IMG/VR virus record: IMGVR_UViG_2585427765_000017 | Length of the DNA stretch: 36,151 bases | Strand: one strand, 5' to 3' | Source of the DNA: a virus | Taxonomy: Duplodnaviria > Heunggongvirae > Uroviricota > Caudoviricetes | Shown here: one piece after another, positions 4,928 to 19,723 of the stretch | How positions within the stretch are numbered: position 1 is the first letter of the stretch | How the letters are laid out: the number at the start of each line of letters is the position of its first letter | The notes under the pieces: generated by a model | The model's database searches: none | The model's input: the letters and a program-made list of their open reading frames with translations, nothing else | Told to the model about the DNA's origin: nothing | Translations under genes and position numbers: made by a program

Positions 4928-5161
4928 ATGTTAAAATCAACTCTTATTGCTAAATGCCTTTATCAAAATCGCATGGTAAGCAGCATTTCAATAGGCGAGT
5001 CTGCAGTTAAAAGTATTTTCGAAGAGTACTTTTCCGGGCATGATTTTAATAAATGGAATACTAAATTACCGCCAGCAGTTTCAACGCGTATTCTGAAAGC
5101 AACTGAAAGAGCAAGTACAATTCGCGTTAACTATTTCATTAAAGATTTGTGGGATCTTTGA
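4928..5161 (+). CDS. Hypothetical 77-aa protein, opposite in orientation to the surrounding leftward operon
   Basis: Strong RBS (CTCAGGAGGGTGA) directly before the ATG; AT-rich coding; 3' end overlaps the convergent 135-aa gene by about 23 nt. No family recognised. Confidence 0.35.
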   Translation: MLKSTLIAKCLYQNRMVSSISIGESAVKSIFEEYFSGHDFNKWNTKLPPAVSTRILKATERASTIRVNYFIKDLWDL

Positions 5162-5546
5162 TATCCACAGAGCCTAAAGTATGTGCATATGGATGTGCTA
5201 TTGTGCGCCCCTGTAAATTTGCATCGTTTTCTAAATCTTTTGATTTCAACAGAACATCAGCAAGACTCTGAATCATGCAGAGATAATCAAAAGCAGTTGC
5301 CGTTTCTGTTCTGATTGCTGAAATAACATGACCATTCAGGCAAACAGAAATTACCCGTTCATCAATATCGTTTTCCTGTTTTTGATTATCAGAACCATAT
5401 AGCCCTGAAAAAGCATTGCGCACATTACGAACCATATTATCGATGGTTTCTTTTTTGGTGTATGCCGGGTCAATTTTCACCAGACTATCACCGAGTGTCG
5501 TTGCAGCAATTATCTGGATTTCTTTTGGTAAATCTTTAAATTCCAT
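5139..5546 (-). CDS. Hypothetical 135-aa protein between ydfC-like gene and the DicF-like region
   Basis: Clean ORF with ATG start in the leftward early operon; no recognisable motif; absent from the Qin dicB operon as I remember it. Confidence 0.45.
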   Translation of the reverse strand: MEFKDLPKEIQIIAATTLGDSLVKIDPAYTKKETIDNMVRNVRNAFSGLYGSDNQKQENDIDERVISVCLNGHVISAIRTETATAFDYLCMIQSLADVLLKSKDLENDANLQGRTIAHPYAHTLGSVDIKDPTNL

Positions 5547-5568
5547 TATTAGCCTCGTTGGTTAGCCA

Positions 5569-5787
5569 TTAACGTGGGTATGTAATCATTCTGGCAATGC
5601 TTAATGCCGCTGCTTTTTCCAGATTGGTGATATCCTGCTCCAGAGCGGACAGATTTTCAGCTTGCTTAGCCCTGGCTTCATTGGCCCATTTCAGGTCCTG
5701 CGCAGCCTTAATTTTCTGGTGCATCCACTCATAAAGTTCATCATCGGTATAGTCTGGCGCGATGATGACGGGTTCTCGTTTCTGCAT
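5569..5787 (-). CDS. ydfC: YdfC-like protein (72 aa)
   Basis: 72-aa coiled-coil-like ORF (MQKREPVIIAPDYTDDELYEW...) with GAGGAA RBS, in the ydfA-ydfB-ydfC synteny of the Qin dicB operon. Confidence 0.55.
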   Translation of the reverse strand: MQKREPVIIAPDYTDDELYEWMHQKIKAAQDLKWANEARAKQAENLSALEQDITNLEKAAALSIARMITYPR

Positions 5788-5816
5788 ACTGATTCCTCGC
5801 GGTGCTGCTTCGCTTA

Positions 5817-5945
5817 TCAGCCGTTAGATTTTGCCGAGCTGGAAAGCGCCTGTATAAACTCACTGAAGCTGAGAGCTTCTTCGCCTTTGGCAAGGCCTTC
5901 GAAGTATTCTTCGTAAGCCTTTTCCATGATTGTGTCGAAATCCAT
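5817..5945 (-). CDS. ydfB: YdfB-like small protein (42 aa; below track threshold, hand-translated)
   Basis: Minus-strand ORF translating to MDFDTIMEKAYEEYFEGLAKGEEALSFSEFIQALSSSAKSNG; sits between ydfA-like stop and ydfC-like start with 1-nt spacing to the ydfA stop. Confidence 0.45.
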   Translation of the reverse strand: MDFDTIMEKAYEEYFEGLAKGEEALSFSEFIQALSSSAKSNG

Positions 5946-5946
5946 A

Positions 5947-6102
5947 TCACTCACCTGAGTTTCTTTCCAGCCAGCGACGGGCACCATTTTCGGTTTTAAA
6001 CGTTTTGCTTTTGGTATACGTCATCGCGGTGAACGTACCGTCCTGGTTGGGGAACACGCCACATACCAGAGATTCGTTGTTGCCAAGATCGATAGTATCC
6101 AT
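5947..6102 (-). CDS. ydfA: YdfA-like protein (51 aa, internal Met of the 78-aa track ORF)
   Basis: MDTIDLGNNESLVCGVFPNQDGTFTAMTYTKSKTFKTENGARRWLERNSGE matches my recollection of Qin YdfA; GAGGT RBS upstream; first gene downstream of the leftward promoter. Confidence 0.7.
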   Translation of the reverse strand: MDTIDLGNNESLVCGVFPNQDGTFTAMTYTKSKTFKTENGARRWLERNSGE

Positions 6103-6283
6103 GTTGACCTCATTTCCCCTTAACGCCGGGGTAGCGGAACAAAAACCTGCTGCATAGTTATTAAAGTTGAACCCTGCCGTCATGTTCTTACGCCTCGGGC
6201 TGGCTACTTAACCCCTGACCACTGCCTGGTAACTCGAGGTATTGCCCTGTATTGTGTGGGACGGGATGGGTTGGTATGGGAAA

Positions 6284-6350
6284 ACTATAGGAAATGCCTA
6301 ATTACTTGTCAATAGGCTATGCCTAATAATTTGGGCGCAACCTAATAGGT
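6284..6350 (-). promoter_or_regulatory. Leftward early promoter/operator region (PL/OL-like)
   Basis: Minus strand carries TTGACA (about 6307-6312), 17-bp spacer, TATAGT (about 6284-6289). Overlaps the 17-bp operator ATTAGGCATAGCCTATT (inverted, 6311-6327) plus extra GCCTAAT/CCTAATAGG half-sites at about 6296-6302 and 6341-6349. Confidence 0.5.
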
Positions 6351-6420
6351 GATGGTTTGTGGAAGAGGTAGTAGGAGTTAACTAACGGGAACTAGGAATT
6401 TCCCGTCGGACCATATAAGT

Positions 6421-6897
6421 TTAAGTTCCTGTCTTGGTGATGTTCTGGCTTTTCCGTTTTGATTCTTGATTTTTCAGATAGTTAGCTACCTTCATTTCCA
6501 TTGCGGCAATGTAGGCGCGAACGTCATGATCAACCCAACTAGGCTCCGTAGCATTTCCAGATAAGATGAAAGCCACAATTGCTCTTTTTTCATCAGAGGC
6601 GGCTTGATAAAGGCTGTTTATGTCTAAAAGTTCACTTTTTGTATCTGAAGTGGATGGGGTTGGTATGGGGTATTCGTTAAGCCCCCAATGCTCTGGACCA
6701 ACCACATCAGAAAAGAAACGCCATAGTTCTGGAAGTTTGTCTTTACTTATCGAACCTTTCTTAATCCAGTCATGGATTGATGGTGGTTGGACTTTGAAAT
6801 GACGTGCGATTTCCGCCTTTGATTTGACGGCTCCTGATGCAATTTTTTTGTTAATGGCCTGCTCTATCGCTCGGCCTAAGTCTTTACCACTAAGCAT
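6421..6897 (-). CDS. Prophage CI-like repressor (HTH), no recognisable LexA/S24 autocleavage domain
   Basis: N-terminal HTH region (GKDLGRAIEQAINKKIASGAVKSKAEIARHFKVQPPSIHDWIKKG) resembles the phage CI-repressor HTH family; divergent from the cro-like gene; flanked by matching operator repeats. No Ala-Gly/Ser...Lys S24 signature seen in the 158-aa product. Confidence 0.75.
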   Translation of the reverse strand: MLSGKDLGRAIEQAINKKIASGAVKSKAEIARHFKVQPPSIHDWIKKGSISKDKLPELWRFFSDVVGPEHWGLNEYPIPTPSTSDTKSELLDINSLYQAASDEKRAIVAFILSGNATEPSWVDHDVRAYIAAMEMKVANYLKNQESKRKSQNITKTGT

Positions 6898-6944
6898 TGC
6901 TTAATAGTCTCCTATGCGCATCGCGTTAGGCAATCCCTACTCTC

Positions 6945-6997
6945 GATGTATTAGGCATAGCCTATTGACAATTTCATTAGGCTAAGCCTAATATTGT
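6945..6997 (+). promoter_or_regulatory. Rightward early promoter/operator region (PR/OR-like)
   Basis: TTGACA (about 6965-6970), 18-bp spacer, TAATAT (about 6989-6994). Operator ATTAGGCATAGCCTATT at 6950-6966 and near-palindrome ATTAGGCTAAGCCTAAT at 6977-6993 overlapping the -10. The 22-bp TTGTCAATAGGCTATGCCTAAT is repeated inverted at 6306-6327. Confidence 0.55.
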
Positions 6998-7021
6998 TGC
7001 GTGTTTTTTGGAGTTCATTCG

Positions 7022-7345
7022 ATGAAAAAAGATAACTATTCATTCAAACGAGCTTGTGCTGTTGTCGGTGGGCAATCAGCAATGGCTAGGCTTTTAGGTG
7101 TATCTCCTCCAAGCGTAAATCAATGGATCAAAGGTGTACGTCAGTTACCTGCTGAGAGATGTCCTGCGATTGAACGAGCAACAAAAGGTGGTGTCCTGTG
7201 TGAAGAACTTCGTCCTGATGTTGATTGGACATACTTACGACGCTCGTCATGTTATTCGCAGAATATGTCGATGAAGCAACCAAATGACGAAAACGATCAT
7301 ACCCGAAGCATCAAGAGGCAAATGATTCATGAAAATCAAACATGA
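7022..7345 (+). CDS. Cro/YdaS-like HTH regulator
   Basis: MKKDNYSFKRACAVVGGQSAMARLLGVSPPSVNQWIKGVRQLPAERCPAIE is a Cro/C1-type HTH resembling Rac YdaS. ATG at 7022 with GGAG RBS is preferred over the track GTG at 7001, which would lie at the predicted transcription start. Confidence 0.7.
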   Translation: MKKDNYSFKRACAVVGGQSAMARLLGVSPPSVNQWIKGVRQLPAERCPAIERATKGGVLCEELRPDVDWTYLRRSSCYSQNMSMKQPNDENDHTRSIKRQMIHENQT

Positions 7346-7754
7346 GCACATCCGCATGGCGATGAATGCCTGGGCATACCCTGATGGTGAGAAAGTTCCT
7401 GCAGCTGAAATAGCCCGGACTTATTTCGAACTGGGGATGACGTTCCCTGAACTGTATGACGACAGCCATCCGGAAGCCCTGGCTCGCAATACCCAGAAAA
7501 TTTTCCGCTGGGTAGAGAAAGACACCCCTGATGCAGTTGAAAAAATTCAGGCGTTGTTACCAGCGATCGAAAAGGCAATGCCACCTTTGCTGGTGGCCAG
7601 AATGCGCAGCCACAGTTCAGCTTATTTTCGGGAGCTGGTGGAGACGCGGGAGCGACTGGTGAGAGACGCTGATGATTTTGTCGCAGTGGCAATCGCCGGT
7701 TTCAATCAGATGAACCGTGGTGGCCCGGCAGGAAATGCTGTGGCAGTACATTGA
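7329..7754 (+). CDS. YdaT-like (CII-like) regulator
   Basis: MKIKHEHIRMAMNAWAYPDGEKVP... matches my recollection of the Rac YdaT N-terminus; immediately follows and overlaps the Cro/YdaS-like gene. Confidence 0.6.
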   Translation: MKIKHEHIRMAMNAWAYPDGEKVPAAEIARTYFELGMTFPELYDDSHPEALARNTQKIFRWVEKDTPDAVEKIQALLPAIEKAMPPLLVARMRSHSSAYFRELVETRERLVRDADDFVAVAIAGFNQMNRGGPAGNAVAVH

Positions 7755-7825
7755 CTGACAATAGCCATATCGAATCGCTTCCGGCAACTCGTGAGTAAAA
7801 AGATTCGGTATCAGAAGAGGTGAGT

Positions 7826-8896
7826 ATGGCTAACGCCTGGCTCAGATTATGGCATGACATGCCAAATGACCCTAAGTGGCGAACAATTGCCAGGGTGTCA
7901 GGGCAGCCAATTGCAACAGTGATGGCAGTGTATATCCACCTCCTGGTGAGCGCGTCACGAAATGTCACGCGAGGTCACATTGATGTCACGACAGAAGATT
8001 TGGCAAGTGCGCTCGACGTGACAGAAGAGGTAATTGATTCAATTTTGCAGACGATGCAGGGGCGGGTACTTGATGGTGATTTAATCACTGGATGGGAAAA
8101 ACGCCAGGTGCTGAAAGAGGACAACGGCAATATTTCGCAAACCGCAAAATCTCCGGCAGAGCGCAAGAGGGCGCAGCGAGAGAGGGAAAGAAAGCGGGAA
8201 CAAAATGGCGATTGTCACGGCGAGTCACGAAATGTCACGCACATGTCACGACGAGTCACGACAGATAAAGATACAGATAAAGATACAGATCAAGAAGATC
8301 AAAACACTATGGTCCATGGCGTAAAAAACGCCACGAACCAGGCAGGGGATGTTCAGACCGTCACTCCTGGCCAGCCCGCAGGCACGACACCGGAAGCCGA
8401 TTCAGCGTATGCGCTGAAAGCCGATTCGGGCGCTGTGCAGCAGGTGATGACCGCAAGGCAGGAGCAATCACACCAACTTCAGCAGCCTGAAGCCGATTCC
8501 GCCATTCAGCGGGAAGCCGATCGGGTAGTCCCGGAAAACACCGGGCAGCCTGTGGGACGAGTGGATTATCCTGATGTGTTCGAACAGGTCTGGCGGGAAT
8601 ACCCGTTGCGTGCTGGGGCAAACCCGAAGAAATCCGCTTTCAGTGCCTGGAAGGCCAGATTACGCGAGGGGGTGTCACCAGAGGCCATGCTGGATGGCGT
8701 GAGGCGTTACGCAAGATACCTTGCGGCTACCGGGAAAACGGGAACGGAATTTGTTCAGCGAGCGACGACGTTTTTTGGACCGGACCGGAATTTTGAAAAC
8801 CCCTGGCTGCTCCCGGTAAGCGGCACGAACAACCAGCGTTGTGTGAATCATATTTCTGAACCGGATACCGAAATTCCACCGGGCTTCAGGGGGTAA
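7826..8896 (+). CDS. Replication initiation / replisome-organiser protein (O-like, YdaU/DnaT-like C-terminus), contains the putative origin
   Basis: Position after cro/cII-like genes; N-terminal MANAWLRLWHDMPNDPKWRTIARV and C-terminal WREYPLRAGANPKKSAFSAWKARLREG...FFGPDRNFENPW pattern typical of phage replication proteins; iteron clusters lie inside the ORF. ATG at 7826 with GAGGTG RBS preferred over track GTG at 7820. Confidence 0.6.
   Translation: MANAWLRLWHDMPNDPKWRTIARVSGQPIATVMAVYIHLLVSASRNVTRGHIDVTTEDLASALDVTEEVIDSILQTMQGRVLDGDLITGWEKRQVLKEDNGNISQTAKSPAERKRAQRERERKREQNGDCHGESRNVTHMSRRVTTDKDTDKDTDQEDQNTMVHGVKNATNQAGDVQTVTPGQPAGTTPEADSAYALKADSGAVQQVMTARQEQSHQLQQPEADSAIQREADRVVPENTGQPVGRVDYPDVFEQVWREYPLRAGANPKKSAFSAWKARLREGVSPEAMLDGVRRYARYLAATGKTGTEFVQRATTFFGPDRNFENPWLLPVSGTNNQRCVNHISEPDTEIPPGFRG
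7950..8290. repeat. Iteron clusters (putative ori) inside the replication gene
   Basis: Four T/GTCAC(G/A) copies at about 7954-7990 plus inverted CGTGAC at about 8026-8031; five GTCACG copies at about 8212-8262 spaced about 10-11 bp; then tandem GATAAAGATACA x2 and an A-rich stretch. Resembles lambda ori lying within O. Confidence 0.5.
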
Positions 8897-8936
8897 GTGT
8901 TGATTTCTGGTCATGAGGTAATTTTCAGGAGGACTT

Positions 8937-9359
8937 GTGGCAAAAGTTTTTACACAAGAAGAGCGAGAAAAAATTAAAGGGCAGGTTGTTGAACTCGTAC
9001 GCCAGAGTGGGCGTGAGACGTTACGGCAACTGGAAGTCAAGACAGGTGCGACAAGATATCTGATGAGCGTTCTCGCAAGAGAGCTGGTTGCCAGCGGCGA
9101 TGTATACAACTCTGGTTACGGGTTATTCCCGTCTGAACAGGCGCGTAAGGACTGGCAAAATGCCCGTAAAAAGCTCTCAAGGGCAAAGCTGAAGAAACCA
9201 TCTGCGGTTGATCCGGACCTTATCTGGTCATTACCTGACGGAGAAATACGTCGCTACGACAGGCGTCAGAACATAATCTGTCGCGAGTGCCGGAAGAGTG
9301 AGGTTATGCAGCGAGTGCTGGCGTTTTATCAGGGTAATTTTCAGGAGGTGATGGCGTGA
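8937..9359 (+). CDS. Hypothetical protein (140 aa)
   Basis: ORF with GTG start preceded by CAGGAGG; no family recognised. Confidence 0.45.
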   Translation: MAKVFTQEEREKIKGQVVELVRQSGRETLRQLEVKTGATRYLMSVLARELVASGDVYNSGYGLFPSEQARKDWQNARKKLSRAKLKKPSAVDPDLIWSLPDGEIRRYDRRQNIICRECRKSEVMQRVLAFYQGNFQEVMA

Positions 9360-9652
9360 GAGTGAGAGTCTATATCGCCGGTCCAATGACCGGGTATAAA
9401 AATTTCAACCGTGAGGCGTTTCACAATGCGGAAGAGGAACTGAAACGGGAAGGGCATACCGTCTTAAACCCGGCAGTACTTCCGGACGGGCTGACACAGC
9501 CGCAGTACATGGATATCTGCATGGCGATGATTCGTTGCGTGGATGCGATTTACATGCTGCAAGGCTGGCAGCGGTCAGCAGGCGCTAAGGCGGAACTGGC
9601 GCTGGCGGAGAAGCTGGGGCATGCAGTTATTTTCCAGGAGGAGGTACAGTGA
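9356..9652 (+). CDS. Nucleoside 2-deoxyribosyltransferase-like small protein (DUF4406-like)
   Basis: VYIAGPMTGYKNFNREAF...GHTVLNP...YMLQGWQRSAGAKAELALAEKLGHAV pattern typical of this phage-encoded family; GTG start after CAGGAGG. Confidence 0.55.
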   Translation: MRVRVYIAGPMTGYKNFNREAFHNAEEELKREGHTVLNPAVLPDGLTQPQYMDICMAMIRCVDAIYMLQGWQRSAGAKAELALAEKLGHAVIFQEEVQ

Positions 9653-9924
9653 ATATCGACGCAACAATGACGATTGGTACGGCCCTCAATACGGGGCTGG
9701 CGCTTCTTGGTTGGTGCTACATCATGTTCTGCTCATGGCGGTGGCTGTCACTGATGTTACTGAAAGAATGGAATAAACGCTGTAAACAGACGCAGCGGCA
9801 GAAGGCAATGAATGCGTTTTTTGAGACCTTCGATATTGACAGTATAGAACCAGGAGAGCCAGCTCGCGTGATTAGCAGAGGTGACGTTGTAATTCTTGTA
9901 TACCGGAGTGAAGAGAAAGCATAA
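9649..9924 (+). CDS. Hypothetical small membrane protein
   Basis: 91-aa ORF with one hydrophobic segment (LALLGWCYIMFCSWRWLSLMLL); start overlaps upstream stop. Confidence 0.4.
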   Translation: MNIDATMTIGTALNTGLALLGWCYIMFCSWRWLSLMLLKEWNKRCKQTQRQKAMNAFFETFDIDSIEPGEPARVISRGDVVILVYRSEEKA

Positions 9925-10038
9925 TCCAAATCTGAATAATTAAATCCAGCACTGTAAATAAAATTTAATCCTTAACCGGAGGGATTTCTGCCCCCTCAGA
10001 ACATCAGGAGGCCGCCCGAAAGGGCGGTGGAGATAATA

Positions 10039-10545
10039 ATGGAAATAACTAAAGAACGATTATTGGAAATAGCAAATCTTAGTGAAAGGGCATTAAGTGA
10101 TGGGAGGATTATTTCTCCTGATGCTTATGAATCAGTTACAAGTATAGAAATAATAACGATGGCCAGGATGCTTCTTGCCCGCTTCAAAAAAGAATATAAA
10201 AAACAGGTAGATAGCAATGCTAATATATATGATATTTTGGACTGTTGGGGAGCTTGGGCTGTAGCTGGAAATAGTTCTATCAACTGGCAGCAAGTGGCTG
10301 ATAAATATAAAGATGTTGTGCCTCATGGTAAAAAATTGCGTCGCCAGAGCAGCGATGATGAAGGGCGAGTGATTGATGAGTGGATATTGAGACTCAGACA
10401 ATATAAAATAGATGAATATGAGTTAATTGTTGCCCACTTTGTAATAGGCGTTTCTTTGAGAAAGATCGCAAAAAGAAAGAAATGTGCGGATGGGACTATT
10501 AGAAAAAAATACAAGCAGCGATGGGAGTATTGGAGGGAGTATTAA
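10039..10545 (+). CDS. Q-like antiterminator homologue (QuuD/PF06530-like), AT-rich, second Q-type gene in the window
   Basis: Motifs ILDCWGAWAVAGNSSINWQ, DDEGRVIDEWILRL, YELIVAHFVIGVSLRKIAKRKKCADGTIRK resemble (from memory) the ERWGAWA...DDD...YVVG... pattern of QuuD-type Q proteins. ATG at 10039 with GGAGA RBS; visibly AT-rich compared with flanks. Confidence 0.5.
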   Translation: MEITKERLLEIANLSERALSDGRIISPDAYESVTSIEIITMARMLLARFKKEYKKQVDSNANIYDILDCWGAWAVAGNSSINWQQVADKYKDVVPHGKKLRRQSSDDEGRVIDEWILRLRQYKIDEYELIVAHFVIGVSLRKIAKRKKCADGTIRKKYKQRWEYWREY

Positions 10546-10566
10546 TGCTCTAACTGTTAGAGCTAA
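10546..10566. terminator. Hairpin between convergent genes (possible bidirectional terminator)
   Basis: Perfect inverted repeat GCTCTAAC-tg-TTAGAGC sits between the stop of the Q-like gene and the stop of the minus-strand membrane-protein gene. Confidence 0.35.
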
Positions 10567-11783
10567 ATAAAAATCTTCGCAAGAAATATTCCTGCTGCAA
10601 TAGAACTTGGTAGCCAAGCCAAATACATAAATAACTTTATTGTATTATCACATTTGGTTTGGCTCTTTGATAGTTCATATAGAGCCTCATTAATGTCCTT
10701 CTTAAGGTCTTCTGGATAATTTTCATTGTTTTTTAGAAAAGGCATAAATGCTATATCTTTAGCATGGTAAATATGTTTTAATTGTTTATCCTGATTGAGT
10801 AATACCATATATAAAATAAGTGAGCTTAACAATACACCTAATAAAACGAGTAACATTTCAGATCTTGATGTTAGTTTTATAATCCCGAAGGATGCCAGTA
10901 AAGACACAGGGATTGATAATACTTTTGTCGTCAAATCAGTAATAAGTTTTGAGATTTTTTCAGCAAACTCTGCTTCAGACTTCGCAATTTCTTTTCGTGC
11001 CTTATGGAATGAAAAACCACTCATATACGTGGATAAATTATTTTCAAATAGCTTTACAAATTTATCCCAATGGCAAATTAGGTTTTCAAAATCATATTTG
11101 TTATCGAGAATAAACTCCACTATGGTATTCCTGAAAATACCTGTTTTTTCTGCTTGATGGGGGATTTGGGCGTTTTTTACATCTAAAAGACTCTTGATGA
11201 TAGCATCATCAATGTCATTTATATTGAGCATCTTAGGTGTAATGCACGTTTCTAAAATAATAGATGTTGATTTTGCGTCAGAATCTTTCACGAAAACTAA
11301 ACGATAATTTGAAGATTCCGATTTTGTATCGTGAAAGTGCGCAATCTCAGCCAGGGAAGAAATAATTGCACAAATTTTCTCGATTTTTATAATTTCGTCC
11401 GGTTTACTTGAATCAGACGGATGAAAATCCTCATCGATTATGTAATACTCTTTAGGAATTACACCTTTCTTGAGTGAGTTTATACAAAGGAACTCTTGAA
11501 TTGAGTTATAGAAACGTTCTGCTCCATTTTTAGGGGATATGTAAGTGTATGAGAATTTATCTCCAATTTTAATTGGGTGTGATTTTAAATCGTCTTCGTC
11601 AATGAACTCATTATTAATATCAACATCTTCAAAATAACCGTAGGCTTTATGTGAATTTACTAACAAGTTTACCAAACGTTGATTGTTATTATTTATTTCA
11701 ACAGTTGCAGAAAAAGAACGTCCGTCGAATTGGGGCTTCGATGATGCTCTATAAAAATCTACAACCGTTGATAAATTAGCCAT
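10563..11783 (-). CDS. Protein with about 280-aa soluble N-terminal region and three predicted C-terminal transmembrane helices; second gene of AT-rich operon
   Basis: Hydrophobic segments VLSIPVSLLASFGIIKL, MLLVLLGVLLSSLILYMVLL and IKLFMYLAWLPSSIAAGIFLAKIFI near the C-terminus. ATG (MANLSTVV) overlaps the upstream gene stop as ATGGCTAA; the track GTG start at 11795 is less likely. K/N/I/D-rich composition. Confidence 0.7.
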   Translation of the reverse strand: MANLSTVVDFYRASSKPQFDGRSFSATVEINNNNQRLVNLLVNSHKAYGYFEDVDINNEFIDEDDLKSHPIKIGDKFSYTYISPKNGAERFYNSIQEFLCINSLKKGVIPKEYYIIDEDFHPSDSSKPDEIIKIEKICAIISSLAEIAHFHDTKSESSNYRLVFVKDSDAKSTSIILETCITPKMLNINDIDDAIIKSLLDVKNAQIPHQAEKTGIFRNTIVEFILDNKYDFENLICHWDKFVKLFENNLSTYMSGFSFHKARKEIAKSEAEFAEKISKLITDLTTKVLSIPVSLLASFGIIKLTSRSEMLLVLLGVLLSSLILYMVLLNQDKQLKHIYHAKDIAFMPFLKNNENYPEDLKKDINEALYELSKSQTKCDNTIKLFMYLAWLPSSIAAGIFLAKIFI

Positions 11784-12918
11784 TTTCTTTTCCACTATCC
11801 CTTATTTTTAAATTTTCTTTTACCACAGCGCTTAGTTTAGCCTTAAATTCAGCTGGTAAGTTTGTAAATGATAATCTTCCAGTTGTTTCATCGTACCACA
11901 CATCATCATCAGCTGTCACTCCAAGGAGAGACTTGTCAAAATTAAATCCAATCTCATCAGTCTTAAAGGTGATGTTTTTAATGTCTTTCAACGCCCGTTT
12001 ACTGATAACAAATTCAGTTGGAATTCTCACATTTTCACTATTTAAAAAAAGAATTAATTCGTGAGTGTAAGATTCTTTGGTAGACTCATCTAAATTTGTC
12101 ATGTGACGTGCTGCAATTACTTCAATATCACTCAATCGGGCTGACAAATTTTTAGCTGCTTGTGTGTCTAAATATGCAATAACGTCATGTTTAAATCTAT
12201 TGGCACATGCTTTAAGTTCTGGTTTTTGGTTAAAAAATTGTTTTGCGACAGTTGGTAGTTTTTTTGTGGCTTTTGCTGCTGCAAGTGATTTGTCGCATCC
12301 TATTGCTGCAATAAAATATGCTGATGTGGATTGACCCACTCCTTTACTTACGAAACTTAGATAACTTAAGTCAATTTTTTCAGACTCATCAGCAGTTTTA
12401 TATTGTTGGTAGAGATTGAAATTTATTCTTGCTGCTTGGTGTATTTTGGATAGATCCAAATGGATCATTTCTTCAGGTTCGAGTTTGTTGCTGATAGTAA
12501 CACCATTTTTCTTTTTAATCATTGCAATTAAAAAGAATTTATTGTTATTTACAATATAGTCACAAAACACAATAAAACCACCAGATGACCAAGGTTCTTC
12601 TTTGGCTTTTTTTACAAGTTGCTTCATCACTTCAATAGAAAAAGGCACAAACTTTTCATTAATGTTATCCTCTGACTGAGAATACTCTTCAAATATTGAT
12701 GGCACAGGCCCTTGTTCTGTTTTTTCCTCTTTAAAAACGCCATAATGTGCAGAATTGCCTTTGGTTCCATATAAAGATGAAATGTCTTGAATAAGTTTTA
12801 TAACAATTGGATTGGTTTTATCGAGAGGAGTGGATCTAAGCTGATACGGCTTAGAAAAATCAAAATCCTTTTTTGCTTCTTTAATTAGTTCATGAACGAT
12901 AACTTGCTTAATTTCCAT
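11776..12918 (-). CDS. NdpA/YejK-like (NA37 nucleoid-associated protein family) homologue; first gene of AT-rich operon
   Basis: VIVHELIKEAK near the N-terminus, GGFIVFCDY and YLSFVSKGVGQSTSAYFIAAIG motifs parallel YejK IALHQLIK, GGFVLFCHY, YLTFLKGRVGRKVADFF as I recall them; AGGTGA RBS 8 nt upstream of ATG. Needs HMM confirmation. Confidence 0.65.
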   Translation of the reverse strand: MEIKQVIVHELIKEAKKDFDFSKPYQLRSTPLDKTNPIVIKLIQDISSLYGTKGNSAHYGVFKEEKTEQGPVPSIFEEYSQSEDNINEKFVPFSIEVMKQLVKKAKEEPWSSGGFIVFCDYIVNNNKFFLIAMIKKKNGVTISNKLEPEEMIHLDLSKIHQAARINFNLYQQYKTADESEKIDLSYLSFVSKGVGQSTSAYFIAAIGCDKSLAAAKATKKLPTVAKQFFNQKPELKACANRFKHDVIAYLDTQAAKNLSARLSDIEVIAARHMTNLDESTKESYTHELILFLNSENVRIPTEFVISKRALKDIKNITFKTDEIGFNFDKSLLGVTADDDVWYDETTGRLSFTNLPAEFKAKLSAVVKENLKIRDSGKENG

Positions 12919-13192
12919 ATTGAAAATATCACCTATGTTATTGTTAGATCGTTTGTGATTTTTTTACCATCACAACAACGACACAAAATCATTAATGCGT
13001 ACGCAAAAATTTTGAATAATGAGTTAATCAATGTCAATAGTTAAACACACTACCGCTGTAGAGTTGTTGTCATTAAATTGCGTCATAAGTAGAATTGCTG
13101 CGGGTGCTTGAGGCTATCTGTCTCAGGCATGAACACCAAAAGGCAGATAGATAAAAGCCCCACCCGACTATAAATCGAAGTGAGGCCCCTAT

Positions 13193-13405
13193 ATGCTCGT
13201 CACATATAGATTGCCTCTTACGGACCGAAAGGTCAAGGAGAAGCAGGCTATGAAGCAGCAAAAGGCGATGTTAATCGCCCTGATCGTCATCTGTTTAACC
13301 GTCATAGTGACGGCACTGGTAACGAGGAAAGACCTCTGCGAGGTACGAATCCGAACCGGCCAGACGGAGGTTGCTGTTTTCGTAGACTACGAATCTAGAG
13401 AGTAA
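13193..13405 (+). CDS. mok: Mok-like overlapping reading frame of the hok locus
   Basis: 70-aa frame that starts upstream of, and terminates with, the hok coding sequence, as in hok/mok/sok loci. Confidence 0.5.
   Translation: MLVTYRLPLTDRKVKEKQAMKQQKAMLIALIVICLTVIVTALVTRKDLCEVRIRTGQTEVAVFVDYESRE
13250..13405 (+). CDS. hok: Hok/Gef-family type I toxin (51 aa)
   Basis: MKQQKAMLIALIVICLTVIVTALVTRKDLCEVRIRTGQTEVAVFVDYESRE is a near-exact Hok-family toxin sequence (HokD/RelF-like from memory). Confidence 0.85.
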   Translation: MKQQKAMLIALIVICLTVIVTALVTRKDLCEVRIRTGQTEVAVFVDYESRE

Positions 13406-13414
13406 GAGTGACCT

Positions 13415-13501
13415 GGCGGGAGAGTAATCTCCCGCCACCTCTGATGTGTCGGCATCCTCAACGCACCCGCACTTAACCCGCTTCGGCGGGTTTTGTTTTT
13501 T
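13415..13501 (+). terminator. hok mRNA 3' structures: 9-bp perfect hairpin (fbi-like) plus intrinsic terminator
   Basis: GGCGGGAGA-gtaa-TCTCCCGCC at about 13415-13436 immediately after the hok stop; then AACCCGC-ttcg-GCGGGTT with a T-run at about 13475-13501. Confidence 0.5.
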
Positions 13502-13573
13502 CTGGTCGTTCTGGTTTACAATCCATCCGTCAGCCTGAACAACTGGCACCTGCTGCGCCAGCAGAGAAAACAG

Positions 13574-13852
13574 ATGGCGCACGATACCAAATTTTACAAT
13601 TCGGATAACTCTGCCGCCCCTGCCAGCAGGCACGGGCGGCGTTCTCATGCATTCAAATCTGACTGGTATCAGCACGACCCCTGCACCGAAGAACAGGCTG
13701 AATGGCTGATTCAGCGCTACCGCAGACACGGATACGAGATTAAGAAAGCCCTCAGCCTCGATTATCGTCACTGGATAATCTTCGTCAGGCTCCCTTATTC
13801 CGAACGCCCACCGCGTCCGTCCCGCACATTCCAGCAACGCATCTGGAGGTAA
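13574..13852 (+). CDS. Hypothetical nin-region protein (internal Met of track ORF 13493..13852)
   Basis: ORF MAHDTKFYNSDNSAAPASRHGRRSHAFKSDWYQHDPCTEEQAEW...; stop 1 nt before the next gene start. No family recognised. Confidence 0.4.
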   Translation: MAHDTKFYNSDNSAAPASRHGRRSHAFKSDWYQHDPCTEEQAEWLIQRYRRHGYEIKKALSLDYRHWIIFVRLPYSERPPRPSRTFQQRIWR

Positions 13853-13853
13853 C

Positions 13854-14912
13854 GTGCGGGTATTACTTCGACCTGTTCCGGTACCGGAACTTGGGCTGGT
13901 GGTGCTAAAACCGGGCCGTGAATCCATGCAGGTATTTCATAATCCTCGAGTTCTGGTGGAGCCGGAACCGAAAAGCATGCGCGGTCTGCCGTCCGGAGTC
14001 GTTCCTGCCGTTCGCCAGCCATTGGCGGAGGATAAATCATTACTGCCATTTTTCAGCGATGAGCGGGTGATTCGTGCTGCTGGTGGTGCTGGTGCACTGT
14101 CTGACTGGCTGTTACGCCACATTAAATCCTGCCAGTGGCCTCATGGTGACTACCATCACAGCGAAACCGTCATACATCGTTACGGTACCGGTGCAATGGT
14201 GTTGTGCTGGCACTGCGACAACCAGCTGCGTGACCAGACTTCCGAATCACTCGGGCAGCTTGCTCACCAAAATTTGTCAGCATGGATGATTGACGTCATA
14301 CGCCATGCAATGAATGGCACGCAGGAGCGGGAATTATCGCTGGCTGAATTATCCTGGTGGGCAACCATAAATAACGTAGCGGACGCACTACCGGAGACGG
14401 TATTACGTCGTTCTCTGGGGTTACGTGCGGAAAAAATCCGCTCGGTGTACCGCGAAAGCGACATCATACCGGGAGAGCAGACAGCCACCAGCATCCTGAA
14501 ACAGCGCACAAAAAATCTTGCGCCGTTGCCTCACGCCCACCAGCAACAGAATCCACCACAGGAAAAGATGGTGGTCAGCATTGCCGTTGATCCGGAGTCA
14601 CCGGCTCAGTATCTCCAGCGCCAGAAACCACAACGGGAAGATATGCCTGTATACACGCGTTGGGTAAAAACGCAGAAATGCATGACGTGTGGCAATCAGG
14701 CAGATGATCCGCATCACATCATTGGTCATGGACTGGGAGGGATGGGAACAAAGGCTGATGATTTGTTTGTTATTCCGCTGTGCCGTAAATGCCATAGCGA
14801 ACTACACGCCGGGGTAAAAGATTTTGAAGAAAAACACGGCAGCCAGCTGTTGTTGCTGATTCGTTTTTTAATGCACGCGAGAAATTCGGGTGTCCTGAAG
14901 TGGAAAGCATGA
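13854..14912 (+). CDS. DUF968-family protein (YdfU-like) with C-terminal Cys/His cluster
   Basis: C-terminal CMTCGNQADDPHHIIGHGLGG...LCRKCHSELH pattern; GTG start 5 nt after GGAGG; immediately upstream of rusA as in lambdoid nin regions. Confidence 0.6.
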   Translation: MRVLLRPVPVPELGLVVLKPGRESMQVFHNPRVLVEPEPKSMRGLPSGVVPAVRQPLAEDKSLLPFFSDERVIRAAGGAGALSDWLLRHIKSCQWPHGDYHHSETVIHRYGTGAMVLCWHCDNQLRDQTSESLGQLAHQNLSAWMIDVIRHAMNGTQERELSLAELSWWATINNVADALPETVLRRSLGLRAEKIRSVYRESDIIPGEQTATSILKQRTKNLAPLPHAHQQQNPPQEKMVVSIAVDPESPAQYLQRQKPQREDMPVYTRWVKTQKCMTCGNQADDPHHIIGHGLGGMGTKADDLFVIPLCRKCHSELHAGVKDFEEKHGSQLLLLIRFLMHARNSGVLKWKA

Positions 14913-15278
14913 ATGACTGAACGCATAGAATTTGTTTTGCCTTACCCGCCAACGGTGAACACTTACTGGCGACGTCGTGGCAGCACATATTTTGTATCAA
15001 AAGCCGGTGAGCGTTATCGCCGTGATGTGGCGCTTATTGTTCGCCAGCAGCGGCTGAAATTAAACCTGTCCGGAAGGCTGGCGATAAAGATTATTGCAGA
15101 GCCACCGGATAAACGTCGTCGTGACCTGGACAATATCCTGAAAGCACCACTGGATGCGCTGACGCATGCCGGACTTCTCATAGACGACGAGCAGTTTGAT
15201 GAAATTAATATTGTGCGCGGTCAGCTCGTTCCTGGGGGGCGGCTGGGCGTGAAGATTTACAAAATTGAGAGTGAGTGA
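14913..15278 (+). CDS. rusA: Holliday junction resolvase RusA
   Basis: LPYPPTVNTYWRRRG...RRRDLDNILKAPLDALTHAGLLIDDEQ parallels the RusA PWPPSNNRYY...RRRDLDN...DAL pattern; 121 aa. Confidence 0.85.
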   Translation: MTERIEFVLPYPPTVNTYWRRRGSTYFVSKAGERYRRDVALIVRQQRLKLNLSGRLAIKIIAEPPDKRRRDLDNILKAPLDALTHAGLLIDDEQFDEINIVRGQLVPGGRLGVKIYKIESE

Positions 15279-15829
15279 TCGTAAATATGATATATCCGGA
15301 AATTACAGGCAAAAGCGGCGAGCATTTACGTCTAAAAACGCTGGAAGCCGTCTGGATCCAGGGGAAATTACGGATGTGGGGGCGTTGGTCGTATATAGGT
15401 GGTGGCAAACCAGGAAATATGTTCAATCAGTTGCTGGCATCCAAAAAACTGACAAAAACCGCGGTCAATGAAGCCCTGCGTAGAATCAGGGAGTCAGGGA
15501 TTGATAAACCAGAGCTGGAAGCATTCTTGCGAGAGATGATCGCTGGCAGACAGAAGAGCTGGTTGTCTCACTGTACTGATGCAGAGGCGTTACGCATTGA
15601 TGGGGTGATAAGTAAAGCGCTTGCACGTTATCCTGGATTGATTGATATCCTGCGGCAAAGGTACGAAGGGCGGGGGATGAGTAAACGCAAAATGGCTGAA
15701 TTGTTGAATGAGGTTCACCCTGAGTGGTGCTATGCAACATGCCGCAATCGTATAGATATGTGGCTGAGAATAGCTGAGTTTATTCTGTATCCACTGATGC
15801 GAGATGCATTTTCTTTTACTGACGCTTAG
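15275..15829 (+). CDS. Late antiterminator Q candidate (canonical position)
   Basis: About 180-aa ORF directly after rusA and directly upstream of a short non-coding stretch ending in a strong intrinsic terminator (tR'-like), the standard Q-PR'-tR' arrangement. Sequence family not confirmed. Confidence 0.5.
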   Translation: MIVNMIYPEITGKSGEHLRLKTLEAVWIQGKLRMWGRWSYIGGGKPGNMFNQLLASKKLTKTAVNEALRRIRESGIDKPELEAFLREMIAGRQKSWLSHCTDAEALRIDGVISKALARYPGLIDILRQRYEGRGMSKRKMAELLNEVHPEWCYATCRNRIDMWLRIAEFILYPLMRDAFSFTDA

Positions 15830-15996
15830 AATCTGGAGGGCGTTTGTTGTTGCACGAAGAGGATTTTTGGCTGGTAGTAAGGTTTGTGCAGTTTTAGAAA
15901 AAAAGCTTGTATTTTTAGCCATAAACTGTTTCAATCCAGCTACGCTTCGCAAAGCTGTACCGCGAGGCGAATAGCAGACATGGACACCTGAAAGAA

Positions 15997-16019
15997 CCCG
16001 CTTTATGCGGGTTTTTTTA
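15997..16019 (+). terminator. Intrinsic terminator (tR'-like) downstream of Q
   Basis: CCCGC-tttat-GCGGG followed by TTTTTTT at about 15997-16019. Confidence 0.6.
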
Positions 16020-16141
16020 TGCCTGAAAAACGGCACAGAACATTAAACGCGCTGGTAGTTGTGAATACTGGTCTTTCAGCTTGCTGGCTTTTTCGACAAG
16101 AGGTATTGGTATGTCACGTTAACCAGAAAAGGGAAAAAGGC

Positions 16142-16339
16142 ATGCTAAAACAGCAGGATATGACCGAAACCGCCAGAGTGGTGTTTAATGAATTAAGCGT
16201 CACCGAACCGGCGACCGTCGGGGAAATTGCGCAGAATACTTACCTTTCACGCGAACGCTGCCAGTTAATACTGACTCAGCTTGTTATGGCGGGTCTGGCA
16301 GATTATCAGTTCGGTTGTTACAGACGCCTTCCGCAGTGA
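16142..16339 (+). CDS. Small hypothetical protein (65 aa), possibly winged-helix DNA-binding
   Basis: Internal Met of track ORF 16019..16339; MLKQQDMTETARVVFNELSVTEPATVGEIAQNTYLSRERCQLILTQLVMAGL; sits between tR' and the methyltransferase. Confidence 0.35.
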   Translation: MLKQQDMTETARVVFNELSVTEPATVGEIAQNTYLSRERCQLILTQLVMAGLADYQFGCYRRLPQ

Positions 16340-16489
16340 AGGCTTTTTAATTTGTGGTAATGGGCGGCTGGTGGGTGTTAGCGGCACCTGCCAGCCATCT
16401 GCTCATGCGTTGGGGTCACAAGCAAACCTCAGGCCCATCTGCTTTGCGCAAAAGCGGTATGAGCCTATCAGAGAAGTGCTTATTGATCT

Positions 16490-17539
16490 ATGATTAATAC
16501 TGTAAAAATATCCAGTTGTGAGTTAATCAACGCTGATTGCCTGGAGTTTATCCAGACCTTACCGGAAAACTCTGTCGATCTGATAGTCACAGACCCGCCA
16601 TATTTTAAAGTGAAGCCCGAGGGCTGGGATAACCAGTGGGAGGGCGACGATGATTACCTGAAATGGCTGGACCAGTGTCTGGCGCAGTTCTGGCGGGTAC
16701 TGAAGCCTGCCGGAAGTCTTTACCTGTTCTGTGGTCATCGCCTGGCATCTGACACCGAAATCATGATGCGTGAGCGCTTTAATGTGCTGAACCACATTAT
16801 CTGGGCGAAGCCGTCCGGACGCTGGAACGGGTGCAATAAGGAAAGTCTGCGGGCGTATTTTCCGGCAACAGAGCGCATTCTGTTTGCAGAACATTATCAG
16901 GGACCGTATCGCCCGAAAGATGATGGCTATGTGGAGCAGGGGCGCGAGCTAAAACAGCACGTCATGGCCCCGCTGATTTCTTACTTTCGTGATGCGCGTA
17001 AATCACTGGGAATAACGTCAAAACAGATAGCGGAAGCCACCGGAAAGAAAAACATGGCTTCGCACTGGTTTGGTGCCAGTCAGTGGCAGTTACCGAACGA
17101 GGGTGATTACAATAAATTGCAGGCGTTGTTTGCGCGTGTTGCGGCAGAAAAACATCAGCGCGGGGAACTGGAAAAGCCACACCACCAGCTGGTCAGCACA
17201 TACAGTGAGCTGAACCGGCAGTATACGGAACTGCTGAGTGAATATAAAAATTTGCGGCGGTATTTCGGTGTGACGGCGCAGGTTCCGTACACCGATGTCT
17301 GGACGCATAAACCGGTGCAGTACTATCCAGGGAAACATCCGTGCGAAAAACCGGCAGAAATGCTGCAGCAGATAATCAACGCGAGCAGTCGTCCGGGAGA
17401 CCTGGTTGCAGATTTTTTTATGGGTTCAGGTTCAACGGTAAAAGCGGCGATGGCACTGGGGCGTTGTGCGATTGGTGTTGAGCTGGAGACCGGACGTTTT
17501 GAACAGACAGTCAGGGAAGTTCAGGATTTAATCGTTTGA
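16490..17539 (+). CDS. DNA methyltransferase (N6-adenine/N4-cytosine class, DPPY motif), apparently orphan
   Basis: Motif IV DPPY near the N-terminus (LIVTDPPYF) and motif I FxGxG near the C-terminus (DFFMGSGST). No restriction endonuclease gene identifiable adjacent. Confidence 0.85.
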   Translation: MINTVKISSCELINADCLEFIQTLPENSVDLIVTDPPYFKVKPEGWDNQWEGDDDYLKWLDQCLAQFWRVLKPAGSLYLFCGHRLASDTEIMMRERFNVLNHIIWAKPSGRWNGCNKESLRAYFPATERILFAEHYQGPYRPKDDGYVEQGRELKQHVMAPLISYFRDARKSLGITSKQIAEATGKKNMASHWFGASQWQLPNEGDYNKLQALFARVAAEKHQRGELEKPHHQLVSTYSELNRQYTELLSEYKNLRRYFGVTAQVPYTDVWTHKPVQYYPGKHPCEKPAEMLQQIINASSRPGDLVADFFMGSGSTVKAAMALGRCAIGVELETGRFEQTVREVQDLIV

Positions 17540-17588
17540 AACGGATGAGATTGCAGAATTAATTACGCACCATTATTATTCTGCTCCC

Positions 17589-17664
17589 GGCCCTTTAGCT
17601 CAGTGGTGAGAGCGAGCGACTCATAATCGCCAGGTCGCTGGTTCAAATCCAGCAAGGGCCACCA
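17589..17664 (+). tRNA. ileZ: tRNA-Ile (anticodon CAU, lysidine type; ileX/ileZ-like)
   Basis: GGCCCTTTAGCTCAGTGG...ACTCATAATCG...GGTTCAAATCCAGCAAGGGCCACCA: acceptor GGCCCTT/AAGGGCC, anticodon loop CUCAUAA, encoded CCA; close to E. coli ileX as recalled. Confidence 0.8.
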
Positions 17665-17671
17665 TCACATA

Positions 17672-17748
17672 CCGCCATTAGCTCATCAGGATAGAGCGCC
17701 AGCCTTCGAAGCTGGTTGCGCGGGGTTCGAGTCCTCGATGGCGGTCCA
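17672..17748 (+). tRNA. argN: tRNA-Arg (anticodon UCG)
   Basis: Cloverleaf folded by hand: acceptor CCGCCAT/ATGGCGG, anticodon stem CCAGC/GCTGG with loop CTTCGAA, T-loop TTCGAGT, encoded CCA. C1-G72 start is unusual. Confidence 0.7.
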
Positions 17749-17761
17749 TTATCTGTACCCT

Positions 17762-17838
17762 GCGTTGTTAGCTCAGCCGGACAGAGCAATTGCCTTCTAA
17801 GCAATCGGTCACTGGTTCGAATCCAGTACAACGCGCCA
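17762..17838 (+). tRNA. argO: tRNA-Arg (anticodon UCU)
   Basis: Acceptor GCGTTGT/ACAACGC, anticodon stem ATTGC/GCAAT with loop CTTCTAA, T-loop TTCGAAT, encoded CCA. Confidence 0.8.
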
Positions 17839-17852
17839 CGCTTATTTTTCCA

Positions 17853-17882
17853 GGCTCGCTTCGGCGGGCCTTTTTCATATCC
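17853..17882 (+). terminator. Hairpin plus T-run directly after the tRNA cluster
   Basis: GGCTCGC-ttcg-GCGGGCC followed by TTTTT at about 17853-17882. Confidence 0.4.
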
Positions 17883-18013
17883 GCGCCACGCCCGGCGCAC
17901 ATCAAAAAACCACAGAGCCTTTCAGGGGTGAGCTTACGGGATGGTCAGTGTGACTTTCTCTGTGGGCTGGTCACCCCCGGGCGCAGGCTCACCCACTAAA
18001 AGGAAAAGTCACG

Positions 18014-18439
18014 ATGTTTGGTATTTTCAAAAAGAAAACCCGCAAGGCCATTACCGAGGTGAAGAAGATGGAGAACCGTGACGCAGTGGAGGCGACCGTC
18101 TGGGGCGCGTACTCCATTGCATACGCTGACGGCACCTGTGACGCGAAAGAAATCGCGGTACTGGAAAAAACCATTGCAGCACTTCCTGTCTTTGCGCCGT
18201 TCTCCGGTGAGATTGCACAAATGAGTGCAAATATCCGCGCCCGTTATGAAGCGTCGCCGCGTTCTGCCAATGCCGAAGCTCTTCGTCAGCTGGCTGATGT
18301 TGCCGGTACTGATGATGCAGTTAATGTGCTGTGCCTGTGTCTGGATATCGCTGACCAGGACGGTATCGGTCAGGAAGAAGAAGCGCAACTGAAGAAAATT
18401 GCGCAGGCGCTGCAGTTGCCGCTGGAGCAGTACCTGTGA
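18014..18439 (+). CDS. TerB-domain-like protein (moron at the position occupied by stx in Stx phages)
   Basis: Two ADG/ADQDG...E...L repeats (IAYADGTCDAKEIAVLEKTI and LDIADQDGIGQEEEAQLKKIAQALQL) characteristic of TerB-like domains; RBS AAGGAAAAG before ATG. Confidence 0.55.
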   Translation: MFGIFKKKTRKAITEVKKMENRDAVEATVWGAYSIAYADGTCDAKEIAVLEKTIAALPVFAPFSGEIAQMSANIRARYEASPRSANAEALRQLADVAGTDDAVNVLCLCLDIADQDGIGQEEEAQLKKIAQALQLPLEQYL

Positions 18440-19332: not shown

Positions 19333-19334
19333 AT

Positions 19335-19712: not shown

Positions 19713-19723
19713 GTAAAACAAAA

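Follow-up and report, generated by a model that had tools for sequence, protein, structure and literature searches.

A YejK-like protein and its membrane-anchored partner in an Escherichia coli prophage: a probable anti-phage cassette distantly related to DS-1

The 36,151-nucleotide virus sequence IMGVR_UViG_2585427765_000017 of IMG/VR, called the window here in its full length, carries at positions 10563 to 12918 of its minus strand two overlapping genes, of which the first encodes a YejK/NdpA-like nucleoid-associated protein (NAP) of the NA37 family and the second a partner protein with hydrophobic helices at its C-terminus. By analogy with described relatives, we consider it likely that this pair is a prophage-borne two-gene anti-phage (abortive-infection) cassette, made up of a NAP sensor and a transmembrane (TM) effector, and that it is a distant relative of the DS-1 system with the architecture of the type II PANGU systems. 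In sequence terms, the pair is best classed as a divergent member of a described kind, being neither DS-1 itself nor a new kind of system; the pairing has already been described in two publications of 2025-2026 (DS-1 and type II PANGU). The observations on which we base the assignment are the gene structure, the NA37 identity of the first gene, the membrane anchor and the acidic N-terminal region of the second, the homology of both to DS-1, the strict co-conservation and co-divergence of the pair, and its position as cargo of prophages or of a defence island.

The two genes and their predicted products

The genes and the sites that belong to them are as follows.

11776..12918, minus strand: gene 1, YejK/NdpA-like nucleoid-associated protein (NA37), ATG start, 380 amino acids (aa), RefSeq WP_001460784.1
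10563..11783, minus strand: gene 2, the partner, 406 aa, RefSeq WP_001460783.1
11776..11783, minus strand: junction at which the gene 2 start overlaps the gene 1 stop, ATGGCTAA, from the sequence read-out
10788..10934, minus strand: codons of a hydrophobic helical hairpin of gene 2, about aa 284-332, from Kyte-Doolittle hydropathy and the model helices
10569..10640, minus strand: codons of a third, C-terminal hydrophobic helix of gene 2, about aa 382-405, from Kyte-Doolittle hydropathy and the model
13009..13037, minus strand: candidate sigma-70 promoter of the operon, TTGACA-17 nt-CAAAAT, from a consensus scan, 10/12 matches
12934-12929, minus strand: ribosome-binding site AGGTGA of gene 1, from the sequence read-out

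The gene 1 product matched the Pfam family PF04245 (NA37) with an E value of 2e-51 (175.8 bits; cut-off, 24.6) across profile positions 1 to 324 of 325, and it matched the PHROG family phrog_3767, 'nucleoid associated protein', at E 3e-73. The motifs VIVHELIK (aa 6-13), GGFIVFCDY (aa 113-121), and YLSFVSKGVG (aa 186-195) are present, and the protein begins straight at the NA37 domain (MEIKQVIVHELIK), without an N-terminal zinc ribbon. A profile of the gene 1 family retrieved the solved E. coli YejK chain 9be2_A at E 3.9e-33. Likewise, an AlphaFold2 model with a pLDDT of 84.9 had 9BE2 as its top Foldseek match (E 2.9e-16; TM-score, 0.44/0.50), and this was the sole match at E<=1e-3. Sequence and model agree in predicting a full-length NA37/YejK-NdpA protein with the YejK fold. 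The score against the housekeeping YejK equivalog model (NCBIfam NF001557) is below the cut-off, at 139.4 bits versus 341, and gene 1 belongs to a paralogous, mobile-element lineage and is not the housekeeping YejK orthologue.

Gene 2 had no match to a Pfam domain, and its match in PHROG (E 7e-70) was to phrog_5023, a phage family of unknown function. Hydrophobic stretches were found at about aa 284-306, 308-332, and 382-406, and none before about aa 284 (Kyte-Doolittle, 19-residue windows). In the hairpin, windows scoring at least 1.5 start at aa 284-288 and 301-314, with a maximum of 2.83 at aa 311, and this segment aligns with the 'ALTIPGALIAAGGLVK...' segment of DS-1B, the second protein of DS-1. 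In the third helix such windows start at aa 384 and 388; across the family, P392 is invariant and W390 is nearly so. The AlphaFold2 model of gene 2 (pLDDT, 85.7) has an alpha/beta domain at about aa 1-180, a helical region at aa 183-237, and long helices at aa 239-288, 290-303, 307-351, 358-388, and 391-405. The net charge of aa 1-237 is -11, within a family range of -2 to -18 among 25 homologues, and the isoelectric point is 5.4. The predicted protein thus consists, by sequence analysis and modeling, of an acidic soluble N-terminal region (about aa 1-283) followed by a C-terminal membrane region. Fold searches with the model returned only nonsignificant likeness to CorA channels and to alpha-pore-forming toxins of the ClyA and Ahl types.

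Several motifs are strongly conserved in the partner family (window about 11342-10995): AHFHD at aa 148-152 (AHxHD), YRLVF at aa 161-165, GIFRNT at aa 215-220, and NNLSTYMSGFSFHKARK at aa 248-263 (NNLSxYxSGFSFHKxR), the last of which lies in the long helix running into the first hydrophobic segment. The AHFHD motif reads ADHHN in DS-1B, where the second His alone is kept. We regard these motifs as a candidate NAP-binding or gating surface.

Neither gene is a chance open reading frame (ORF), because each has hundreds of homologues. The gene 2 ORF at its longest spans 10563-11795 (minus strand) and would encode 410 aa from a GTG start; the internal ATG at 11783 gives the 406-aa form, which is the RefSeq call, and in an alignment this Met is also the start of 25 homologues. 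Within the 8-nt overlap, the ATG of gene 2 lies on the end of gene 1, GGC-TAA (read-out gaaaATGGCTAAttt), and translational coupling of the two genes through the ATGGCTAA overlap is likely. The proposed promoter lies about 90 nt upstream of the gene 1 ATG and about 65 nt from the sok match of the neighboring hok/sok locus, and it is only a candidate because such sites are no commoner in the region than expected from shuffled sequence. A terminator scan 3' of gene 2 revealed no convincing intrinsic terminator; a 7-bp hairpin at 10563-10547 overlaps the gene 2 stop codon and is without a T-run, and a terminator-like site at 10595-10579 falls inside the last gene 2 codons. The GC content is 32.5% over 10563-12918, compared with 47.7% at 5000-10000, 51.8% at 13100-20000, and 50.3% in the whole window. 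The AT-rich block extends into the adjoining antiterminator-Q-family gene at 10027-10545, with 38.8% GC in the interval 10001-10500.

A preliminary description of this DNA, made from the sequence and its ORFs, had reported two minus-strand genes with overlapping stop and start, an upstream product with YejK/NdpA motifs, a downstream product with a soluble region of about 280 aa and three C-terminal hydrophobic helices, and a hok/sok neighbor. The gene structure was recovered exactly where it had been placed, with ATGGCTAA as the junction; the motifs were present and the NA37 identity was borne out by PF04245 (E 2e-51) and by the fold match to 9BE2; hydropathy and the AlphaFold2 model agreed with the described topology; and the neighbor was identified by a sok RF01794 match of 109 bits and a Hok/Gef coding sequence. 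The two genes had also been described as far more AT-rich than their flanks, which holds at 32.5% GC versus about 50%, with the amendment that the block also includes the adjacent Q-family gene. Structure prediction with Foldseek, which had been suggested for both products, found an NA37-like fold with 9BE2 on top for the upstream protein and yielded only the nonsignificant similarities to CorA and ClyA/Ahl for the downstream protein.

Relationship to DS-1 and PANGU and spread of the pair

DS-1 was described under the working name D390 by DeWeirdt, Mahoney & Laub (DefensePredictor, Science 2026; PMC13092281) and is represented in NCBIfam by NF053868 and NF053869. It is an E. coli operon that encodes WP_000355468.1 (DS-1A; 391 aa, zinc ribbon plus NA37) and, 3 nt later, WP_000150292.1 (DS-1B; 404 aa) (PMC13092281). 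The gene coordinates are 220602-221777 and then 221780-222994, and the C-terminus of the second product is hydrophobic. Cloned with its native promoter, DS-1 was replicated as a defence system against phages in E. coli, with -log efficiency of plating (EOP) values of 7.6 for Bas1, 2.7 for Bas26, 1.7 for Bas3, 1.7 for T3, 1.0 for T5, and 0.9 for T7 (PMC13092281). The text of that paper says of DS-1 just that a 'YejK nucleoid-associated domain' was newly validated in defence, the mechanism not being studied, and its tables contain further 'nucleoid-associated protein' entries among the predicted defence genes (PMC13092281).

Both window genes matched the corresponding NCBIfam models, gene 1 matching DS1_1_antiphage (NF053868), a model titled 'nucleoid-associated anti-phage protein', at E 5.9e-29 with 101.2 bits and gene 2 matching DS1_2_antiphage (NF053869) at E 4.2e-30 with 105.1 bits. 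In pairwise BLASTP, gene 1 aligned with DS-1A at E 9e-9 (22% identity over 214 aa) and gene 2 with DS-1B at E 1e-14 (27% identity over 162 aa). When families were compared by hhalign, the gene 2 family matched the single DS-1B sequence at 97.6% and the 33-member DS-1B family at 99.2%, with an E value of 6e-20 over 311 columns that were collinear across aa 83-405; the first approximately 80 residues of the two proteins are without alignment. Word-seeded searches showed no overlap between the gene 2 and DS-1B partner families. Judged by the profile comparisons, gene 2 is homologous to DS-1B at the superfamily level, and the window pair and DS-1 are homologous in both genes and represent different subfamilies.

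The second described relative is PANGU, a bicistronic system of a YejK-like NAP (PagA) and an effector (PagB) encoded less than 40 bp apart (Li et al., bioRxiv 10.64898/2026.04.06.716658, April 2026). In type II PANGU ('Cluster 2'), composed of Pag2A and Pag2B, Pag2B has a C-terminal TM region and an acidic N-terminal DNA-mimic domain, 'DMK', that binds Pag2A with a dissociation constant (KD) of 19 nM (10.64898/2026.04.06.716658). The E. coli type II system, PANGU-Ecu, requires both genes and acts by abortive infection, and no construct was toxic (10.64898/2026.04.06.716658). A green fluorescent protein fusion, GFP-Pag2A, localized to the nucleoid and dispersed upon T4 infection, and T4 escaped via mutations in denA (EndoII) (10.64898/2026.04.06.716658). 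The NAP of type I PANGU is a dimer that threads DNA of more than about 200 bp, and the system becomes toxic when its NAP is dead for DNA binding (10.64898/2026.04.06.716658). With these systems as models, gene 1 is the proposed sensor, PagA-like or DS-1A-like, and gene 2 is the proposed effector, Pag2B-like or DS-1B-like.

The pair is kept together well beyond the window. An NA37 gene was found directly upstream of the partner gene, on the same strand, in 6/6 homologous gene arrangements, with spacings of -11 to +32 nt. The loci are listed below with the identities of their NA37 and partner proteins to the window proteins and with their settings.

L002-L004, E. coli: 53%/40%; between holin and Q
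L005-L006, Xenorhabdus: 65%/58%; beside Q
L007, a Logan sequencing-run contig: 36%/33%; short contig
L008-L009, Klebsiella pneumoniae prophage: 46%/38%; between holin and Q
L010-L011, Arsukibacterium: 39%/29%; island with integrase, BrxR/WYL, and HsdM
L012, a DS-1-type pair of K. pneumoniae: 22%/26%; between holin and Q

For comparison, the published DS-1 proteins show 22%/27% identity to the window proteins. The NA37 and partner identities fall in parallel, as expected for a co-inherited, co-evolving unit. The DS-1-type pair of L012 and the window-type pair of L008 occupy the same slot, and their K. pneumoniae backbones share DUF968, D12 methylase, Phg_2220_C, and DUF4222 genes; a single site can therefore hold either type as its cargo.

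Among the full-length pairs that were examined, the most distant one lies outside a prophage, in Arsukibacterium indicum (L010; JAHRID010000008.1, 1-8531). The island there encodes an integrase, RadC, AlpA, ProQ, and a BrxR-type WYL regulator, with the type I restriction-modification gene hsdM directly downstream, and this setting is a classical defence island. In another K. pneumoniae copy (L009; CP154186.1), an IS1 element at 7409-8106 sits exactly between the partner and Q genes and cuts the partner ORF by one codon, to 409 aa from the 410 aa of L008.

Searched against 1.84 billion cluster representatives, the partner profile gave 1,041 matches at E<=1e-3, 634 at E<=1e-10, and 210 at E<=1e-30, a family size of about 1,000 that is counted in clusters at 50% identity. 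The best 150 of the 1,041 homologues are mostly full-length, at about 400 to 440 aa. Homologues with named sources come from Photobacterium, Aliivibrio, Idiomarina, Serratia, Pantoea, and Xanthomonas and are labelled hypothetical or 'phage-related membrane protein'. The partner gene also has homologues in Salmonella, Serratia, and Yersinia, and a copy is present in one sequenced Klebsiella phage.

The preliminary description had proposed a horizontally acquired defence or abortive-infection module in which an NA37 sensor is paired with a membrane effector, and this part of the proposal is supported by the homology to DS-1 and by the PANGU architecture. It had also held that the module was uncharacterised and matched no named system, a claim that has been overtaken by the match, at the family level, to the described DS-1 and type II PANGU systems. 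Co-conservation in unrelated elements, which it had put forward as a check, was found in all six arrangements, including the Arsukibacterium island outside a prophage. Of the profile searches it had proposed, the one for NA37 (PF04245) succeeded and the one with PADLOC gave no match for either protein.

Prophage setting and neighboring genes

The window is identical to a Rac-like lambdoid prophage that adjoins potCD in E. coli E203449, and the cassette is present in 4/5,426 complete E. coli genomes. The order of genes is int, xis, exonuclease, dicB, racR, ydaT, replication genes, DUF4752, the Q-family gene, and the pair, which is antisense; hok/sok, DUF968, rusA, DUF1133, a methylase, three tRNAs, lysis genes, and terminase follow. 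The DUF1133 gene is a second antiterminator-like gene of this prophage and lies closer to the late genes. The neighboring features are as follows.

10027..10545, plus strand: antiterminator-Q-family gene, 172 aa, convergent with the pair, from the RefSeq annotation
13102-13405, plus strand: complete hok/sok locus, in which sok matches Rfam RF01794 at 13102-13252 with 109 bits and the Hok/Gef ORF falls within 13193-13405
17589-17838, plus strand: three tRNA genes, just upstream of the lysis cassette and after the DNA methyltransferase gene (about 16490-17539)

The hok/sok locus is immediately upstream of the NA37 operon and is divergently transcribed. The interval between DUF4752 and hokD (window flanks at about 9860-10030 and 13060-13760) is a variable accessory slot, because related E. 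coli prophages carry other cargo there, including ead/Ea22-like genes, DUF7167, and several hypothetical genes. The hok flank was matched in 4,968/5,426 E. coli genomes, and an empty-site search with the joined flanks found no E. coli genome that has the Q flank next to the hok flank. The Q-family gene is part of the imported block, not of the backbone.

The Q-family protein of the window is longer at its N-terminus, by about 60 aa, than the 114- to 119-aa Q proteins elsewhere, and it is 57% identical to the Q protein whose gene abuts the pair in the K. pneumoniae prophage. In L002, L005, L008, and L012, the gene that adjoins the 3' end of the pair is a Q gene of PF06530, tail-to-tail with it at 7218-7565, 7209-7568, 7358-7702, and 7195-7551, respectively, and the 3' ends overlap by 4 to 30 nt. 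There are two explanations: Q travels together with the pair, or insertions have a hotspot at the 3' end of Q. Antisense transcription reading out of the Q gene could serve to regulate the pair.

Further downstream, the three tRNAs have the anticodons CAT (Met according to ARAGORN, Ile according to RefSeq), TCG (Arg), and TCT (Arg). Between the tRNA cluster and the holin genes, at 18014-18588 (plus strand), are a DUF3927 gene and a gene of the TerB family (tellurite-resistance-like), both of which may be further accessory cargo of the late-promoter region.

Proposed function and comparison with known systems

The anti-phage activity, the need for both genes, the abortive infection, the relocation of the NAP, and its binding to an acidic domain all come from the literature on the relatives, and we infer by analogy that the present subfamily acts as they do and that its effector works by membrane damage. 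In the lysogen, the NA37 protein would coat the chromosome with no sequence preference, and the 406-aa partner would be held in the inner membrane by its C-terminal helices, its acidic N-terminal region facing the cytoplasm. Degradation of the host chromosome by a superinfecting lytic phage would leave the NA37 protein without its DNA substrate, and the freed protein would then bind the acidic, DNA-mimicking cytoplasmic domain of the partner. Binding would switch the helical membrane region to a membrane-damaging state, by ion leak or depolarisation, such that the infected cell would stop growing and the phage burst would be aborted. Lambdoid phages do not degrade the host genome, and because they spare it, the carrier prophage could keep the sensor untriggered during its own induction.

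Several points weigh against this reading. The defence role of the window pair, probable as it is, is read from its relatives only, and the proteins are just 22 to 27% identical to those of DS-1. The DS-1 equivalog cut-offs were missed, with scores at about one-third of those needed (101.2 versus 330 bits for gene 1 and 105.1 versus 315 bits for gene 2). Gene 1 lacks the zinc ribbon (CxxC...CxxC; about 40 aa) that precedes the NA37 domain in DS-1A and in the K. pneumoniae homologue of DS-1A. No model of PADLOC-DB v2.0.0 (2023), a release older than DS-1 and PANGU, matches gene 1 or gene 2 at E<=1. The window pair is set beside Pag2A and Pag2B by their described architecture, not by sequence, and Li et al. 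themselves state that how Pag2A activates Pag2B is not known (10.64898/2026.04.06.716658). Finally, DS-1 has a range that includes Bas1, Bas26, and T3, with T4 not listed, whereas PANGU-Ecu acts on T4, and the trigger may not be uniform among these systems.

A joint reading that goes further than this is tentative and, taken as a whole, rather unlikely. It holds that the pair is a separate lineage of NAP plus membrane effector, at 22 to 27% identity to DS-1 and without the zinc ribbon, that it may have its own trigger and phage range, that the junction with Q is functional, and that the partner is a gated oligomeric channel. Read-through of the early operon across Q during the lytic cycle of the prophage itself would then run antisense to the pair and may switch the defence off; the prophage would therefore avoid self-restriction. 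The partner model has a CorA- and ClyA-like flavor, with an alpha/beta cytoplasmic domain, long stalk helices, and a C-terminal hydrophobic hairpin, and such a model would point to a gated oligomeric channel, not a simple membrane-disrupting peptide.

A mechanism in which gene 2 keeps the NA37 protein at the envelope, where incoming phage DNA would be bound and its entry, replication, or transcription blocked while the cell survives, as in Kiwa or in superinfection exclusion, is improbable. A membrane anchor joined to a DNA-binding partner does follow the logic of Kiwa, the cassette is prophage cargo as many exclusion genes are, and KwaB chains were among the weak Foldseek matches of the gene 1 model. 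Those matches are not significant (9nyu_A, E 0.40; 9mtn_K, E 0.53; probability, 0.02 to 0.09), no Kiwa model of PADLOC was matched, and the literature contained no paper connecting KwaB with YejK. Moreover, the tested relatives are abortive, and their NAP is on the nucleoid, not at the membrane, before infection.

Lower still in probability is an explanation without a defence role, in which the phage encodes a nucleoid protein to its own advantage and uses it for organising, silencing, or membrane tethering of prophage or host DNA. Plasmid-encoded NdpA homologues, such as that of plasmid pCAR1, are thought to organise or silence DNA for the benefit of their own element. Gene 1 does score higher for housekeeping YejK (139 bits) than for DS1_1 (101 bits), and the tight link to Q in many prophages could hint at phage gene regulation. 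Against this, the homology of the partner to DS-1B, a component of a validated defence system, extends over 311 columns, and the pair is also present at a non-prophage locus, next to BrxR and a type I restriction-modification methylase. Low GC content and an antisense position are typical of accessory morons, not of core phage functions, and most prophages of the same backbone are without the pair, which was present in only 4 of the 5,426 E. coli genomes. A module of the toxin-antitoxin or addiction type, in which the membrane protein would be a constitutive toxin restrained by NA37 that stabilises the prophage, is very improbable: the two overlapping genes of the operon, the adjacent membrane toxin locus hok/sok, and a weak sub-threshold match of gene 1 to the Pfam family YafO_toxin (E 0.051) recall such modules, but that match is far under its threshold (14.1 versus 25 bits), 380 and 406 aa are atypical sizes for a type II toxin-antitoxin pair, and PANGU constructs were reported to be nontoxic.

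Read as a NAP-sensor and membrane-effector cassette, the pair would add a large divergent subfamily, occurring as a moron beside Q of lambdoid prophages in E. coli, Klebsiella, and Xenorhabdus, to a class of immunity that was recognised very recently and in which genome integrity is monitored by a nucleoid protein coupled to a membrane effector. A second, distant subfamily offers conserved residues and a natural comparison for the activation of the effector by the NAP. Because both the NCBIfam equivalog models and PADLOC v2 miss the pair, the defence content of prophages is under-counted.

Among known proteins, the housekeeping YejK/NdpA of E. coli (PDB 9BE2) shares its Pfam family and fold with gene 1 over the full length, at about 19% identity; YejK is encoded by a stand-alone chromosomal gene, whereas gene 1 is encoded by a prophage in an operon with a membrane protein gene. 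Kiwa, with KwaA in the membrane and KwaB binding DNA, likewise couples a membrane component to a DNA-binding one, a logic that is analogous only. The roles are the opposite of those in the PANGU model, sensing in Kiwa being ascribed to the membrane protein and the effector function to KwaB. Homology to Kiwa was considered and rejected, there being no PADLOC match and no match to the Pfam family DUF4868, and Kiwa is kept as an analogy.

DS-1 has the same gene order as the window pair, an NA37/YejK-like gene followed by the gene for a partner that has about 405 aa and ends in hydrophobic helices. The comparison with type II PANGU extends from gene structure to expected logic. Both are bicistronic operons with a YejK-like NAP, the window genes being an NA37 gene and a partner with an 8-nt overlap; the C-terminal TM domain of Pag2B has its counterpart in the hydropathy peaks at aa 284-332 and 382-406 and the model helices of gene 2; and the acidic DMK domain was compared with the N-terminal region of gene 2 by net charge alone. 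Type II PANGU occurs on mobile elements or in defence islands, and the window pair is likewise on a mobile element; PANGU was discovered by its linkage to defence islands, whereas the window pair lies in the nin/Q region of a prophage. In type II PANGU the NAP is expected to sense the loss of chromosomal DNA and to engage the effector. With its operon, NA37 protein, acidic N-terminal region, and C-terminal TM region, the window pair fits the type II PANGU architecture.

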